Of a DNA stretch of 33,129 bases, positions 7,838 through 16,751 are shown in pieces. The stretch's first letter is position 1. Each line of letters starts with the position of its first letter. Origin of the DNA: a virus (taxonomy: Duplodnaviria; Heunggongvirae; Uroviricota; Caudoviricetes); the IMG/VR virus record IMGVR_UViG_2579778745_000007, positions 1 through 33,129 of that record, one strand, 5' to 3'. The position numbers and the translations under genes are program-made. Below the pieces are notes generated by a model that was not told the origin of the DNA, ran no database searches, and saw only the letters and a list, made by a program, of their open reading frames with translations.

Positions 7838-8218
7838 CTACTCCGCAGAACCATACAATCTACGTAACGTGTCGGCGACAGAAGATACAGATATCTCGCC
7901 AGTCGCAGCGCCTACAGTAAGGTCTGCCAGTTCAGGTGAATCAAATACCTGCACCCCGTTACGGCGTAGAAATAGCAGCGCACTGTTTAGCGCGGTACGC
8001 TTATTGGCATCATTGAATATATGCCCTCTCGCTGTAGCCACCAGGTAGGTGGCGGAGACTTCGAAAAGGTCGGTGATATCTTCGTAGGCAACTCTGGCCT
8101 GAACTCTCCCGATAATGGCCTCTGCCCTACCCGGATCTGACATTCCCGGCAGGCCGCCGTAGCGGCTTATATTCGCATCATGAAGCGCAATAAGTTCTTC
8201 CGGTGATATATGCCTCAT
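7838..8218 (-). CDS. doc: Doc toxin (Fic-fold kinase, death on curing)
   Basis: 126 aa; Fic motif HIFNDANKR; closely matches my recollection of P1 Doc; stop/start coupled to phd. Confidence 0.95.
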
Positions 8219-8439
8219 TATCGGTTAACCAGTTCCTTGTTGGTGGAGTCCAGGGTGTCAAACAGGGATGCAAATTCAGCATCCAGCGCCGCTTTTTTGT
8301 AGGCTTCGAAAGTAGCCTTGCTGACAATTACTGCTGGCTCACGGCCTCTGCGGGTGATTTCAACCTCTTCCCCGGCTTCAACATTGTTGAGCACTTCAGA
8401 AAGGTTGCCGCGCGCGGTACGGAAGTTAATGGATTGCAT
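8218..8439 (-). CDS. phd: Phd antitoxin (prevent host death)
   Basis: 73 aa from ATG at 8439 ([39 protein letters not shown]...), matches recalled P1 Phd; ORF track adds two upstream codons from GTG at 8445. Confidence 0.95.
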
Positions 8440-8448
8440 AAACACCTC

Positions 8449-8469
8449 GTGTACTCGTTATGTGTACAC
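8449..8469. promoter_or_regulatory. phd/doc operator-promoter region with two 8-bp palindrome-like sites
   Basis: GTGTACTC (8449-8456) and perfect palindrome GTGTACAC (8462-8469); TATAAT on minus strand just upstream; GAGGTG RBS. Confidence 0.55.
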
Positions 8470-8615
8470 AATTATAAACTTCACAGGCATAAAGCACCAG
8501 CACTTTGCGGCTTAACAAACCTCTAGGCAGGTCATTCGTAGCCTAATGTCCGAACTGCTAAAGCATCCAAGTTGCTGTAGAATCACCGCCAATTACATAA
8601 GCCTGAAATAAGTGG

Positions 8616-10178
8616 ATGAAAATGACAAGTATTCAACAACGTGCAGAGCTTCATCGTCAAATCTGGCAAATTGCTAACGATGTCAGGGGTTCGGTCGATG
8701 GATGGGATTTTAAGCAATACGTTCTGGGCGCACTTTTCTACCGTTTTATCAGCGAAAATTTTTCCAGTTATATTGAAGCCGGTGATGACAGTATCTGTTA
8801 TGCGAAACTGGATGACAGCGTAATTACTGATGACATTAAAGACGATGCCATCAAAACTAAAGGCTACTTCATCTACCCCAGTCAGCTTTTCTGCAACGTA
8901 GCTGCGAAAGCAAATACTAATGACAGGCTGAATGCAGATTTAAACAGCATCTTCGTTGCTATCGAAAGTTCTGCTTACGGTTATCCTTCAGAAGCTGACA
9001 TCAAAGGTTTGTTTGCTGATTTCGATACCACCAGTAACCGCCTGGGTAACACCGTTAAAGATAAAAATGCCCGCCTGGCTGCGGTTCTGAAAGGGGTTGA
9101 AGGGTTAAAACTTGGTGACTTCAACGAACATCAGATTGACCTGTTCGGTGATGCCTATGAGTTCCTGATTTCTAACTATGCGGCAAATGCCGGTAAGTCA
9201 GGCGGTGAGTTCTTTACACCGCAGCACGTCTCCAAGCTGATTGCACAACTGGCTATGCACGGGCAGACCAACGTTAACAAAATCTACGACCCGGCAGCGG
9301 GTTCCGGCTCACTGTTGTTGCAGGCTAAAAAGCAGTTTGATAACCACATCATCGAAGAAGGCTTTTTCGGTCAGGAAATCAACCATACGACCTATAACCT
9401 GGCGCGTATGAACATGTTTTTGCACAATATCAACTACGACAAGTTTGATATCAAGCTGGGCAATACGCTGACTGAGCCGCACTTCAGAGATGAAAAACCG
9501 TTTGATGCCATCGTTTCTAACCCGCCGTATTCGGTGAAATGGATTGGCAGCGATGACCCGACGCTGATTAACGATGAACGTTTTGCCCCGGCTGGCGTCC
9601 TGGCCCCCAAATCCAAAGCTGACTTCGCCTTTGTACTACATGCGCTGAACTATCTTTCGGCCAAAGGTCGTGCTGCGATTGTCTGCTTCCCGGGTATTTT
9701 TTACCGTGGCGGCGCAGAGCAGAAAATCCGTCAGTATCTGGTCGATAATAACTATGTCGAAACCGTAATTTCACTGGCTCCGAACCTGTTCTTTGGCACC
9801 ACCATTGCCGTAAACATTCTGGTTCTGTCCAAACATAAAACGGATACCAACGTTCAGTTTATTGATGCCAGCGAACTGTTCAAAAAAGAGACCAACAACA
9901 ATATTCTGACCGATGCCCATATCGAACAGATTATGCAGGTATTTGCCAGCAAGGAAGATGTTGCTCATCTGGCAAAATCTGTCGCGTTTGAAGCCGTTGT
10001 CGCGAATGACTATAACCTGTCGGTGAGCAGCTATGTGGAAGCGAAAGATACTCGCGAAATTATCGATATCGCTGAGTTGAATGCAGAGCTGAAAACCACG
10101 GTCAGCAAAATCGACCAATTGCGCAAAGATATTGATGCGATTGTGGCTGAAATTGAAGGCTGCGAGGTACAGAAATGA
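8616..10178 (+). CDS. hsdM: Type I restriction-modification N6-adenine methyltransferase subunit HsdM (type IC-like, 520 aa)
   Basis: AdoMet motif [10 protein letters not shown] and catalytic NPPY ([10 protein letters not shown]); stop overlaps hsdS start. Confidence 0.95.
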
Positions 10179-11407
10179 GCGAGTTGAGTTATCTGGAAAA
10201 ATTGCTGGATGGAGTTAAGGTTGAGTGGAAAACACTAGAGAAAGTGCTTAAACGAACTAAAGGCACAAAAATAACCGCTGGGCAGATGAAAGCTCTTCAC
10301 AAAGATAATGCGCCGCTTAAAATTTTTGCAGGGGGAAAAACAGTAGCCTTTGTTGACTTTAAAGATATTCCAGAGAAAGATATTAATAGAGAGCCATCGA
10401 TCATTGTTAAATCCAGAGGTATTATCGAATTCGAGTATTACGATAAACCATTCTCTCACAAAAATGAGATGTGGTCATATCACTCAAATAATGATGCGAT
10501 AAGCATAAAGTATATTTATTACTTCCTAAAAATAAATGAAGGATATTTCCAGAAAATTGGGGGTAAAATGCAAATGCCACAAATTGCAACTCCTGATACA
10601 GATAAGTTTGAAGTTCCAATCCCCTGCCCGGATAATCCGGAAAAATCCCTAGCCATCCAGTCTGAAATCGTTCGGATTCTGGATAAGTTTACTGCACTTA
10701 CCGCTGAGCTTACCGCTGAGCTTAACATGCGTAAAAAACAGTACAACTACTATCGCGACCAGTTGTTGAGTTTTAAAGAGGGTGAGGTTGAGTGGAAGAC
10801 TTTGGGGGAAATTGGGAATTTTACATATGGATATGCAGCCAAAGCCATGGACTCAGGAGATGCCCGTTTCGTGAGAATTACTGACATAAATAAAGACGGG
10901 AAGCTATCGAAAGAAAACCCAATGTACGTTGAATTAAATGAGGAAAATGAGAAATATACCTTAGACAAAAATGATTTACTCATGGCAAGGACTGGTGCAA
11001 CCTTTGGTAAAACAATGATTTTTGAAGAAGATTATCCAGCAGTATACGCTGGTTTTTTAATAAAGTTGAACCTAAATGAAACGATTATTAATGCCAAATA
11101 TTACTGGCACTTTGCACAAAGTGATTTTTTTTGGGAACAGGCTAATAAATTAGTATCTGGTGGTGGGCAACCACAGTTTAATGCTAATGCACTGAAACAA
11201 GTCAGAGTACCTATTCCATACCCATCTCACCCTCAAAAATCTTTAGACGAACAGGGGCGTATTGTGGATATTCTAGATAAGTTTGATGCAATCGCAGCTT
11301 CCATCACCGAAGGTCTTCCGCGTGAAATCGAGTTGCGCCAGAAACAATACGAATATTATCGTGATTTACTGTTCAGTTTCCCGAAACCTGAAACTGTCAG
11401 TAATTAA
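10175..11407 (+). CDS. hsdS: Type I R-M specificity subunit HsdS (type IC architecture)
   Basis: Two AT-rich variable regions separated by a conserved central region with TAEL-TAEL repeat; conserved C-terminal ...[23 protein letters not shown]. Confidence 0.9.
10697..10720 (+). repeat. Two tandem copies of the 12-bp repeat CTTACCGCTGAG (encoding TAEL) in the hsdS central conserved region
   Basis: Direct read of sequence; a partial third unit CTTA follows. Confidence 0.9.
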
Positions 11408-11528
11408 TTGACCATTGCTACCGACCGGGCCACCTTAACACCCGGTCAGTATATAGACTATTTTTTACACGCCGGAAGTCGCCCTTAAAGCCCTTCCGGC
11501 CCTTGCCAGACGGCACAAAGGATGCGCT

Positions 11529-14500
11529 ATGACTCATCAGACACACACCATTGCTGAATCCAATAATTTTATCGTTCTTGATAAGTACATCAAAGCTGAG
11601 CCAACAGGCGACAGCTACCAGAGCGAATCGGACCTGGAACGCGAACTGATACAGGACCTACGGAATCAGGGCTATGAATTTATTTCGGTAAAATCACAGT
11701 CAGCGATGCTGGCCAACGTTCGGGAACAGCTTCAGAGCCTCAATGGTGTGGTGTTTAATGACAGCGAGTGGCGGCGTTTCACGGAGCAGTATCTGGACAA
11801 CCCGAGCGATGGCATTCTGGATAAGACCCGTAAAATCCATATCGACTATATTTGCGACTTTATTTTTGATGACGAGCGACTTGAGAACATCTATTTGATA
11901 GATAAAAAGAATCTCATGCGCAATAAGGTGCAGATTATCCAGCAGTTTGAACAGACGGGTTCTCATGCTAACCGTTATGACGTCACGATCCTGGTTAATG
12001 GCTTACCACTGGTACAAATCGAACTGAAAAAGCGCGGCGTGGCGATTCGTGAGGCTTTCAACCAGATACATCGTTACAGTAAAGAGAGTTTTAACAGCGA
12101 AAATTCCCTGTTTAAGTATCTGCAACTGTTTGTCATTTCTAACGGCACCGATACCCGTTATTTTGCCAACACAACAAAGCGCGATAAAAACAGTTTTGAC
12201 TTCACCATGAACTGGGCGAAATCAGACAATACACTGATTAAAGACCTCAAAGACTTTACCGCTACCTTTTTCCAGAAACATACTCTGCTTAATGTTCTGG
12301 TGAACTACAGCGTTTTTGACAGTAGTCAGACGCTACTGGTGATGCGACCGTACCAGATTGCCGCCACCGAACGAATCTTATGGAAAATCAACAGCTCCTA
12401 TAAAGCGAAAAACTGGTCTAACCCCGAAAGCGGTGGCTTTATCTGGCACACCACCGGTTCTGGTAAAACCCTCACCAGCTTTAAAGCCGCGCGGCTGGCA
12501 ACAGAACTGGACTTTATTGATAAAGTCTTCTTCGTGGTCGACAGGAAAGACCTCGATTACCAGACTATGAAGGAATATCAGCGTTTTTCGCCAGATAGTG
12601 TTAACGGCTCGGAAAATACCGCAGGTCTAAAACGAAATCTGGATAAGGACGATAACAAAATTATCGTCACCACTATTCAGAAACTTAATAACCTGATGAA
12701 AGCAGAAAGCGACCTGCCTGTATACAATCAGCAAGTGGTGTTTATATTTGATGAATGCCACCGCAGCCAGTTTGGAGAAGCGCAGAAAAACCTGAAGAAG
12801 AAATTCAAACGCTATTATCAGTTTGGTTTTACCGGCACTCCTATTTTCCCGGAAAACGCTTTAGGTTCAGAAACGACCGCCAGCGTATTTGGTCGTGAAT
12901 TGCATTCGTATGTAATTACCGATGCGATTCGAGATGAAAAAGTGCTTAAATTCAAGGTGGACTACAACGATGTGCGGCCACAGTTTAAGTCTTTAGAGAC
13001 AGAAACCGACGAGAAAAAACTGAGTGCGGCTGAAAATCAGCAGGCGTTTCTTCATCCCATGCGTATACAGGAAATTACGCAATATATTCTGAATAACTTC
13101 CGCCAGAAGACCCACCGTACTTTCCCAGGTTCCAAAGGCTTTAATGCCATGCTGGCAGTGAGTAGCGTGGATGCCGCGAAAGCCTATTACGCGACGTTTA
13201 AACGGTTACAAGAGGAAGCAGCTAATAAATCGGCTACCTATAAACCGCTGCGTGTTGCGACAATCTTCTCCTTTGCCGCCAATGAAGAACAAAATGCCAT
13301 TGGTGAAATTTCCGATGAAACTTTTGATACCAGCGCAATGGACAGCAGTGCTAAAGAGTTTCTTGACGCTGCAATTCGTGAGTATAACAGCTATTTTAAA
13401 ACTAACTTCAGCACCGACAGTAACGGTTTTCAGAACTACTATCGTGATTTAGCCCAACGGGTTAAAAATCAGGATATCGATCTGTTAATTGTCGTTGGGA
13501 TGTTTTTAACCGGCTTCGACGCTCCAACATTGAACACGCTATTCGTCGATAAAAACTTGCGTTTTCACGGCCTGATGCAGGCATTCTCCCGCACCAACCG
13601 CATTTATGACGCTACTAAAACCTTCGGTAACATCGTCACTTTTCGGGATCTGGAACGCTCAACTATTGATGCCATAACGCTGTTTGGTGACAAAAACACC
13701 AAAAATGTGGTGTTAGAAAAGAGTTATACAGAGTATATGGAAGGCTTTACTGATGCTGCTACTGGTGAAGCTAAACGCGGCTTCATGACAGTAGTTTCAG
13801 AACTGGAACAACGGTTCCCTGACCCTACCAGTATTGAAAGTGAAAAAGAGAAGAAAGACTTCGTTAAACTGTTTGGCGAATACCTGCGTGCCGAGAACAT
13901 CCTGCAAAACTATGATGAATTTGCCACGCTAAAAGCCCTGCAACAAATCGATCTTAGCGATCCTGTTGCGGTAGAAAAATTCAAAGCAGAACATTATGTG
14001 GATGATGAAAAGTTCGCTGAATTGCAAACAATTCGTCTCCCTGCTGATCGCAAGATTCAGGATTATCGTTCGGCCTATAACGATATTCGCGACTGGCAGC
14101 GCCGTGAGAAAGAAGCTGAGAAAAAAGAGAAATCAACCACTGACTGGGATGACGTAGTTTTTGAGGTCGATTTGCTGAAGTCTCAGGAAATAAACCTGGA
14201 TTATATCCTTGGACTGATTTTCGAACACAACAGACAAAATAAAGGCAAGGGCGAAATGATCGAAGAGGTCAAACGCTTAATTCGTTCAAGCCTAGGGAAC
14301 CGTGCTAAAGAGGGCCTGGTGGTCGATTTTATTCAGCAAACGAACCTGGATGATTTACCGGACAAAGCCAGCATCATTGACGCATTCTTTACGTTTGCTC
14401 AACGCGAACAGCAACGTGAAGCAGAAGCATTGATAAAAGAAGAAAATCTCAATGAAGATGCAGCAAAACGCTATATTCGCACGTCTTTAAAACGCGAATA

Positions 14501-14645
14501 TGCCACCGAAAATGGCACAGAATTAAACGAAACATTACCAAAACTTAGTCCGTTAAATCCGCAATATAAAACGAAAAAACAGGCAGTTTTCCAGAAAATC
14601 GTCTCGTTTATTGAGAAGTTTAAAGGCGTAGGCGGAAAAATATAG
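11529..14645 (+). CDS. hsdR: Type I restriction enzyme endonuclease/translocase subunit HsdR (1038 aa)
   Basis: Helicase motif I TGSGKT, motif II DECH, motif [10 protein letters not shown]; size typical of type IC HsdR. Confidence 0.95.
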
Positions 14646-14909: not shown

Positions 14910-15416
14910 TTATTGCTGATGAAGAAGCGCATTTTCATACTCCCTGACCATTAACGTAAGCACGCCGTGCCTCCTGAAAACACGCGCCACTTCAATCTTA
15001 TCTTCCAGCGCGAACGCGATTTTACTTAGACCAATTTTCTTAAGGAGATCAATCTTTGCTGGGCCGTCATTTCTGTCATCGGTGGCAGGACGCATAGATA
15101 GCAAAGGCTCAGCCCCGTTTGTTACGTACTTCCGCAGCCAGGCTCGTGTTTTATCCCTTGCGATCTCACAGCGCCCGGTTACAAACCAGACCGTGTAAAC
15201 GTTAAATAACTGGCGCACCATATCAATAACTGGAGTTATGGGAGTATCGGTGTCACAGGCGAGATTAAACTCGTTCCAGTCCTTTGTTAATGCACCTTTA
15301 CCTGGTGGCGGAAGCAAATGCAGTCTGTCTTCAGTTGCCTCTGATATTGTTCCATCAATATCGACTATGACGATATACGGACGTTCCTGGTGTGCGTGTT
15401 TATTGAAAATACTCAA
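14910..15416 (-). CDS. HAD-superfamily phosphatase-like protein (168 aa)
   Basis: N-terminal HAD motif I VIVDIDGT; downstream conserved T/K/D positions consistent with HAD fold. Confidence 0.5.
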   Translation of the reverse strand: MSIFNKHAHQERPYIVIVDIDGTISEATEDRLHLLPPPGKGALTKDWNEFNLACDTDTPITPVIDMVRQLFNVYTVWFVTGRCEIARDKTRAWLRKYVTNGAEPLLSMRPATDDRNDGPAKIDLLKKIGLSKIAFALEDKIEVARVFRRHGVLTLMVREYENALLHQQ

Positions 15417-15488
15417 ATGCCCTCCTCATTGGACGAAAAAAATGCTGGTGGGCGCACTCCACCAGCATTAAATGTGACACTGTAACTA

Positions 15489-16751
15489 TCAGCGGACGTA
15501 AATAGTGCCGCCGTTCTCTTTTTCCCATGCATCGCTAAGTGCATAGCAAACATCAAGAAGTCTTCTTGCCGCTGTTTCCTCTAAACCCAATTCGACAACC
15601 AACTGCTCATGACGGCGGGTAACCACATCAAACAGGGTATGCAGCCCTTTAGTTGCCAGATCATCAATGAATTCCGGTTCGAACGGCAGCTCTGCATCTG
15701 CCAACATAACCTCTTGCGCCCACTCAACTCGACGGACCAGTTCCGGGCGGCGGCTTTCCATCTCTTTACAGATCAATTCATGGAAGAACTCTACCCAACC
15801 TTCCGGCTGGAACTCGCGGAAAATTGCCAACGGCTGGAAGTTTGGCATCAACCATTCGTTGATTCGGATATCAATGGCATAGCCCATGTCGCAGCAGAAC
15901 TGATAAGCAAAGTCCAGCTTAGAAACGATATAAGGACGCTCGTTATTGAACTCTTTAGGCGATGAGATCCCATAAGCCAGGAGGCGCGGGAAGAAGGAGA
16001 TTTGCCCTAACGTCGGATGAAGTTTGCTTGCAGGGAAACGTCGCTCAGTAATGCCATACATTTCCTTCTTGAGCGTCGCAAATTTAGCATTTTCATTAAC
16101 CAGCTCGGTAACCTCTGCTTTTTTATTAGCAAATGCCACGCGCGCCTCGCTTGCATCTTTAATAGCCTTTTTGAGCTGTTGGTTAAGGTCAGCGACCTGC
16201 TTACGCAGTTCCTGTCGCTCACTTTTGGCTTTGTTATGGCGTTTCTCAAGGTTAAAAGGATCAAGTTTCATGATCTCTTTATATTGAGATTTTAGCGTTG
16301 AAATCTGTGAGTTCCGCAGTTCAACCATCGCGGTCATTTCATTGAGTTTTGTTTCCAGCTCAATGCTTATACGTTCGGCATTATCAGCACGCTGGTTGGC
16401 GTCATGCGTCGCATCGTCGATCGCGTCCTGTTGCTGGCGTTTCAAATGTTCAATTTGCAGCTGAAGCTCTTCAATTTCTTTATCCTTCAGACCGAGATCC
16501 AACTGCATATTTTCAGCTGCATCTACCAGGGAGTTATGGCTATCAGCTTCTGCGTTATAAACATCAATAAGCTGTGCGTGAAGCATCTCCGCTGACTGAA
16601 CCGCATTATCAAAAAAACGCGCTGTGAGGTCATCACAACTAACGCGGCGTTGCGCGGCCCGGATGTTCTGGATAATGGCCGGGATACCGGCATTCAGGAC
16701 GTCAGGGATAGATACATTTTCGATTGATTGGTTTTGTGCTGAAGTGATCAT
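15489..16751 (-). CDS. Hypothetical protein with long N-terminal coiled-coil region and globular C-terminal domain (420 aa)
   Basis: Heptad-rich, charged segment over roughly residues 70-220; no recognisable catalytic motif. Confidence 0.45.
   Translation of the reverse strand: MITSAQNQSIENVSIPDVLNAGIPAIIQNIRAAQRRVSCDDLTARFFDNAVQSAEMLHAQLIDVYNAEADSHNSLVDAAENMQLDLGLKDKEIEELQLQIEHLKRQQQDAIDDATHDANQRADNAERISIELETKLNEMTAMVELRNSQISTLKSQYKEIMKLDPFNLEKRHNKAKSERQELRKQVADLNQQLKKAIKDASEARVAFANKKAEVTELVNENAKFATLKKEMYGITERRFPASKLHPTLGQISFFPRLLAYGISSPKEFNNERPYIVSKLDFAYQFCCDMGYAIDIRINEWLMPNFQPLAIFREFQPEGWVEFFHELICKEMESRRPELVRRVEWAQEVMLADAELPFEPEFIDDLATKGLHTLFDVVTRRHEQLVVELGLEETAARRLLDVCYALSDAWEKENGGTIYVR

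Follow-up and report, generated by a model that had tools for sequence, protein, structure and literature searches.

Type IC restriction-modification systems carry in hsdS a 12-bp repeat encoding Thr-Ala-Glu-Leu (TAEL), located in the first helix of the pair linking the target-recognition domains (TRDs) (PMC3874165). EcoR124I has two TAEL units and recognizes GAAN6RTCG, whereas EcoR124II has three and recognizes GAAN7RTCG; EcoDXXI and EcoPrrI likewise have three, EcoR124/EcoDXXI hybrids with two or three repeats follow the same spacer rule, and the change of repeat number in EcoR124 has been put down to unequal crossing-over (PMC3874165). Experimental tests of the rule (PMC3874165) are confined to EcoR124I/II, EcoDXXI and the hybrids, which have other TRDs than the system described here. 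Natural variation is found in Neisseria gonorrhoeae, where a change in the number of LEAT repeats converts GACN6TGC into GACN7TGC (PMC6789123). Strictly, the repeat number sets how far apart the two methylated adenines lie, and the description "N6" holds only with half-sites of 3 and 4 bp, as in EcoR124I.

The hsdS gene considered here, with two TAEL units, lies in a 33,129-nucleotide viral sequence, referred to below as the window. In our reading, its array is a ruler for the spacer length of a type IC system that a P1-like phage-plasmid carries, and is in the two-unit state; we put the probability of this reading at about 85%.

The hsdMSR operon and its phage-plasmid setting

The backbone of the window is that of a P1-like phage-plasmid, matching pB2-L and its relatives at 98% over 25 kb. 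The hsdMSR genes (8616-14645) lie between phd (8218-8439) and pmgT/pmgS-like genes (14910-16751). On their 5' side are found coi, c1, ant, pacB, pacA, lpa, pdcB, pdcA, doc and phd, and on their 3' side pmgS/Q, ppp, pmgP, tail and baseplate genes, ban and dmt. At the same place pB2-L, the plasmid most similar to the window, encodes a different HsdS, of 425 aa and with three TAEL units; within a backbone that is otherwise conserved, it is thus hsdS that varies. The features discussed below are collected in Table 1.

Table 1. Positions in the window of the addiction module, the hsd genes and the parts of hsdS
Feature	Position	Strand	Basis
doc, addiction module	7838..8218	-	ORF list; annotation of pB2-L (98% identical) and pEM20-18-50_2
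phd, addiction module, immediately upstream of hsdM	8218..8439	-	ORF list; annotation of pB2-L and pEM20-18-50_2
hsdM, 520 aa, type IC N6-adenine methyltransferase subunit	8616..10178	+	Pfam N6_Mtase (6.7e-121), HsdM_N
hsdS, 410 aa, specificity subunit	10175..11407	+	Pfam Methylase_S (two stretches); EcoR124 HsdS alignment
HsdS N-terminal conserved region (about aa 1-19)	10175..10231	+	17 of the first 19 residues as in EcoR124 HsdS; GC 0.404
TRD1, N-terminal target-recognition domain	10232..10615	+	poor alignment, unrelated to the EcoR124I GAA domain; GC 0.344
Central conserved region, first coiled-coil helix D1	10616..10813	+	residues 148-214 identical to EcoR124 HsdS; GC 0.460
TAEL array, CTTACCGCTGAG twice plus CTTA, encoding (L)TAEL-TAEL	10697..10724	+	sequence, translation, Tandem Repeats Finder
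TRD2, C-terminal target-recognition domain	10814..11245	+	unrelated to the EcoR124I RTCG domain; GC 0.363
C-terminal conserved region, second coiled-coil helix D2	11246..11407	+	translation; EcoR124 HsdS alignment; GC 0.434
hsdS-hsdR intergenic region, two inverted repeats and promoter-like site TTAACA-18-TATTTT at 11435-11464	11419..11500	+	
hsdR, 1038 aa, motor/endonuclease subunit	11529..14645	+	Pfam EcoR124_C, T1R_D3-like, SWI2_SNF2, HSDR_N

The operon is intact, with the gene order hsdM-hsdS-hsdR and all three genes on the + strand; the end of hsdM overlaps the start of hsdS by 4 bases, and a 121-bp gap precedes hsdR. HsdM matches EcoR124 HsdM (7bst_D) over its full length (residues 1-520, 1159 bits) and HsdR matches EcoR124 HsdR (2w00) over residues 1-1038 (2289 bits). 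The alignment of HsdS with EcoR124 HsdS (7bst_A) runs from end to end (E 1.3e-78): the central and C-terminal (residues 377-410) regions are identical to 7bst_A, the divergence is found in the TRDs between, and the C-terminal region as a whole is largely identical, with every residue the same from SITEGLPRE onward. Because its conserved regions, including the repeat and the sequences flanking it, match those of EcoR124 HsdS (7bst), we assign the gene to type IC. Membership of a family is formally a matter of cross-hybridisation and of complementation between subunits; going by sequence similarity, the window's hsdMSR is a type IC (EcoR124-family) restriction-modification system, as it combines the gene order, the HsdM and HsdR similarity, the HsdS conserved regions with two TRDs and the TAEL repeats.

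Type IC systems are known to have a separate hsdR promoter, and the promoter-like site between hsdS and hsdR is consistent with such a promoter. Two inverted repeats, one of 11 nt with 91% complementarity (11419-11451) and one of 8 nt with 100% complementarity (11471-11500), occupy the same intergenic region, with overlap of the promoter-like site; they may be regulatory or terminator elements for a separately transcribed hsdR. A promoter and terminator scan of 8200-11700 gave nothing above shuffle expectation that bears on the TAEL array.

The exact HsdS protein of the window is present in NCBI as an E. coli "restriction endonuclease subunit S" (P0001 in our set) on 16 contigs, the longest of 95 kb, and a literature search found no paper tying its two TRDs to a motif. 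The allele with this TRD pair is uncharacterized but already in the databases, and its mechanism is textbook; both of its TRDs differ from those of all characterized relatives that were compared.

Similar operons occupy other settings. On the non-phage resistance plasmids pCTXM15_020026 and pCREC455-2 (loci L129 and L134, 1192-8540) a phd/doc-hsdMSR module is bounded by IS elements and accompanied by a pdcB remnant, and the cassette appears to have left P1-like elements together with its addiction module. On five E. coli chromosomes (L125, L127, L128, L133 and L136) a type IC system with the order DUF4942-hsdM-hsdS-hsdR is located in the hsd/mcrBC "immigration control" region, where it is allelic with the better-known type IA/IB systems; mcrB adjoins three of the five, and tRNA-Leu and ahr adjoin three.

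The TAEL array and the spacing it would set

Positions 10697-10720 consist of two copies of CTTACCGCTGAG in perfect tandem, directly followed by CTTA at 10721-10724, which bears out the two copies and partial third described in the earlier, sequence-only reading of this DNA. Tandem Repeats Finder reports 10697-10724 with period 12, 2.3 copies, 100% matches and a score of 56, the highest in the 33-kb window, where all other scores are at most 39. The array is in frame with the 410-codon hsdS reading frame and, in the conventional register, reads TAEL twice. A tandem duplication that arose by chance or in assembly, and is devoid of function, has the small size of the repeat in its favor and nothing else; by simple arithmetic a perfect 12+12+4 match is expected about 33129 x 4^-16, or roughly 1e-5, times in a random 33-kb sequence, and the array stands in frame, at the homologous position, and its sequence is that of PDB 7bst and of hundreds of independent records. 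The repeat score, the EcoR124 alignment and the near-identical protein clusters described below rule such an origin out, and its probability is negligible. Primers published for removing a repeat from EcoR124II hsdS, ctgcacttaccgctgagctt and accgctgagcttaacatgcg, match the window exactly at 10692-10711 and across the right edge of the array through 10731, and the array and its flanks are thus the same as those of EcoR124 at the DNA level too.

The two TRDs are more AT-rich than the conserved parts of hsdS (GC values in Table 1), again as the sequence-only reading had it, and both are unrelated to those of EcoR124I. A group of 415-aa HsdS proteins from E. coli and Klebsiella (P0016-P0025) has the window's TRD1 in both TRD positions; these are predicted to be symmetric HsdS subunits recognizing a palindromic bipartite site, and to judge from their arrangement the window's N-terminal TRD works in either position.

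Each 12-bp unit encodes Thr-Ala-Glu-Leu, which makes up roughly one turn of the first helix in the antiparallel pair that keeps the TRDs of HsdS apart. With two units the domains would be set as in EcoR124I, to give a bipartite site with the adenine-to-adenine distance of EcoR124I and with half-sites determined by two TRDs unrelated to those of that enzyme. We infer EcoR124I-type adenine spacing for the window allele, with an N6 spacer on condition that the half-sites measure 3 and 4 bp. When a unit is gained or lost, whether by slipped mispairing or by unequal crossing-over, the spacer would shift by 1 bp and a new specificity would so arise with the TRDs untouched; across the family such events recur on evolutionary timescales. 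The earlier statement that two versus three copies in the EcoR124 family correspond to N6 versus N7 agrees with the published work (PMC3874165).

The two helices of the window HsdS are of different length. From ILDKF to RKKQY the central helix measures 13 residues, and from ILDKF to RQKQY the C-terminal helix measures 17, which is one unit longer. Judged by these distances, the two-copy central helix is one unit short of its partner, and three copies would equalize both.

Gain and loss of units in the family

Near-identical loci differ in the number of units. The intact hsdMSR operons of pCTXM15_020026 and pCREC455-2, which share the phd/doc-hsdMSR context of the window, have three and two units, respectively, and are separated by 4 mismatches and one 12-bp indel in 6075 bp. 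The loci of M-17, AB_24_S34 and NC101 have three, four and five units with 0 mismatches over 2.2-5.2 kb; M-17 is intact, and hsdS is split by ISEc45 in AB_24_S34 and NC101. The 1217KP and ETEC1717 loci, both truncated by IS3, have two and five units with 1 mismatch in 5.4 kb. When 289 HsdS sequences were clustered at an identity of at least 95% on everything but the array, 8 of the 186 TRD-pair clusters held more than one copy number (four intact two-versus-three pairs, two one-versus-two sets and two pairs in dead loci) and 178 held a single one.

The units themselves point in the same direction as these pairs. There are 29 distinct unit sequences, and their synonymous positions differ widely between lineages; even so, in 108 of 121 loci the second unit repeats the first exactly, compared with 17.9 +/- 3.5 after shuffling. 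A comparison of Thr codons provides a control matched for gene and codon usage: the units of 83 of 85 loci share one Thr codon, whereas agreement with the Thr codon 9 nt upstream is limited to 48 of the 85. Similarly, of 116 loci only 61 have, immediately 3' of the array, an Ala codon that agrees with the one in the last unit. This pattern indicates concerted evolution, in which adjacent units are kept DNA-identical across phyla; if the array is an actively turning-over ruler, continual gain and loss of units would produce just such near-perfect identity of neighbors. Among complete relatives that share the window's TRDs, the nearest, pEM20-18-50_2 (L001, 97% identity), has CTTACAGCAGAG in both units. 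In E. coli VE-F5 (L136, 4568-4603) the three-unit array ACAGCAGAG-ACAGCAGAG-ACCGCTGAG is a chimera of two allele types, with a left flank of the pEM20 type and a right flank of the window type, the arrangement expected from an unequal crossing-over between the two.

The proposal in the sequence-only reading that copy number can change at this repeat is thus supported for the family, on the strength of the near-isogenic 12-bp differences and the chimera; of the allele in the window itself, no copy-number variant turned up. All 15 protein clusters at 97-100% identity to the window HsdS have two copies. Synthetic one-, three- and four-copy versions of the window HsdS were absent from about 15 billion proteins in an exact look-up, as were one- and three-copy versions of the relatives P0008, P0012 and P0014 and a three-copy version of P0021. 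The same TRD pair with differing unit number is seen in the family, and among same-TRD relatives at 89% identity there are alleles with one unit (P0032 and P0033) and with two, but no such difference is seen for the window allele at an identity of at least 97%.

These observations are what would be expected if the TAEL units were a static part of a conserved coiled coil, with no biologically relevant change in number and with "switch" as a historical label. The two-copy state of every one of the 15 near-identical alleles, the exact protein with one, three or four copies being nowhere on record, the presence of only two units and the 178 single-number clusters all fit such a view. It does not readily accommodate units that are identical at synonymous sites across phyla while neighboring codons drift, which requires repeated gain and loss, nor loci that are nearly identical except for unit number, nor the existence of a chimeric array; furthermore, the array and flanks are at the DNA level those of EcoR124, in which switching was observed in the laboratory. 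We consider a static repeat improbable.

The distribution of copy numbers was followed in three collections. Of 5426 complete E. coli genomes, 1272 contain the central region of hsdS, and a sample of 60 E. coli records was taken at even steps down the ranking, with copy number implied by the alignment spans; megablast bridges a 12-bp gap, and the coverage of a three-copy query did not discriminate, hence the use of spans. Three units were found in 26 of the sampled records (approximately 43%) and two in 29; one, four and five units were found in one record each, and two records were uninterpretable. In all 12 sampled records whose DNA was read, the copy number was the one implied by the span. 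Beyond the sample there are arrays of eight units (strain 33-6) and five units (the NC101 lineage, in which seven assemblies give the same span). The IMG/VR relatives comprise 33 two-unit, 24 three-unit and two one-unit loci, and none with more than three units. From GTDB species representatives only loci with two or more units were taken; of these 121 arrays, 82 have two and 39 have three.

In the GTDB loci (L005-L124), two or three TAEL units followed by (T/N)(A/M)RKKQY are conserved in hsdS genes of Bacillota, Bacteroidota, Pseudomonadota, Spirochaetota and Chloroflexota and of a Methanomassiliicoccaceae archaeon, and adjacent units are almost always identical in DNA sequence. Neither the ruler nor its turnover would therefore be limited to the type IC family of enterobacteria; both would extend well past it.

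Arrays of eight, five, four and five units (L003, 3068-3163; L004, 3068-3127; L125, 4568-4615; L126, 4566-4625) are located in E. coli chromosomal type IC loci that have all been inactivated by IS1, ISEc45 or IS3. Every array found with more than three units (4, 5, 5 and 8) is in an IS-broken locus, and so is one single-unit array, compared with eight of nine sampled loci with two or three units that are intact. The association between unusual copy number and inactivation gives Fisher p = 0.003 by records and p = 0.007 by lineages, with few independent lineages. A stricter statement, confining unusual copy numbers to dead loci, does not hold cleanly for the single-unit alleles L213 and L214, which are on short contigs and have no visible disruption, and was kept only for arrays of more than three units; a third single-unit allele has a split hsdM. 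Selection appears to hold working systems at two or three units, and occasionally at one.

The copy-number data also bear on whether the array could be a high-frequency contingency locus that generates mixed populations of two specificities within a clone, as do the simple sequence repeats (SSRs) in hsdS and mod genes of Haemophilus and Neisseria. Copy number is polymorphic between loci with only 0-4 point differences, and arrays reach eight units, as such a locus might. However, the window has only two units, intact systems are confined to two or three and rarely one, the arrays of four to eight units occur only in IS-disrupted loci, and seven independent assemblies of the NC101 lineage share the span that implies five units, so that even this array is stable at strain level. 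Where SSR contingency loci have long tracts, the window has two units and its intact relatives have one to three. We regard phase variation of this kind as very improbable. Two 12-bp units are a weak slippage substrate, and because there are only two of them and because even a five-unit array is stable at strain level, we infer that the window array is a switch that operates rarely, on an evolutionary timescale, as distinct from a demonstrated high-frequency phase-variable tract.

A broader reading can be built on these data, and we offer it tentatively, as somewhat less probable than its opposite. The TAEL array would be an actively turning-over ruler in type IC-like systems of many bacterial phyla and at least one archaeon, held at two or three units by stabilizing selection and running away to four to eight once the system is inactivated. 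Changes between two and three units would then render otherwise identical elements mutually restricting, both among P1-like phage-plasmids and for the phd/doc-hsdMSR cassettes passed from them to resistance plasmids.

Significance and comparison with known systems

Taken by itself the finding in the window matters little: it is an intact EcoR124-family system on a P1-like phage-plasmid, for which EcoR124I-type spacing is predicted, and its use would be in the interpretation of methylomes and of transformation or phage barriers in strains with such plasmids. The wider value is for the evolution of restriction-modification systems, since the classical laboratory switching of EcoR124 becomes visible at population scale in public genomes, a view that rests on natural two-versus-three pairs, on the long arrays of inactivated loci and on units that evolve in concert. 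An array of more than three units would also be a simple marker of relaxed selection on a type IC system.

The phase-variable type I and III systems with SSRs (phasevarions) resemble the window locus in having a tandem repeat within a restriction-modification gene, the length of which alters methylation specificity (PMC7383803). In those systems long tracts vary at high frequency, mostly with an ON/OFF frameshift as the outcome, whereas the window has two in-frame 12-bp units that would alter spacing and leave expression alone. The type IC-like NgoAV of N. gonorrhoeae, with its LEAT/EATL repeats, follows the same ruler principle and varies in repeat number between strains (PMC6789123); it differs in organism and TRDs, and its specificity also depends on a homopolymer frameshift that truncates HsdS, a type of tract of which none was noted on a plain reading of the region studied here.

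EcoR124II (from R124/3), EcoDXXI and EcoPrrI belong to the same family and have the same repeat. With three units and N7 spacers they represent the state one unit longer than that of the window, and their TRDs differ from those found here. The closest described system is EcoR124I of plasmid R124, which shares with the window the gene order, full-length matches of HsdM and HsdR, closely matching conserved regions of HsdS, the same 12-bp unit, the same DNA flanks and a copy number of two. The two systems differ in location, the window operon being on a P1-like phage-plasmid beside phd/doc and EcoR124I on R124, and in both TRDs, which are unrelated, so that the half-sites recognized by the window system would be other than GAA and RTCG.
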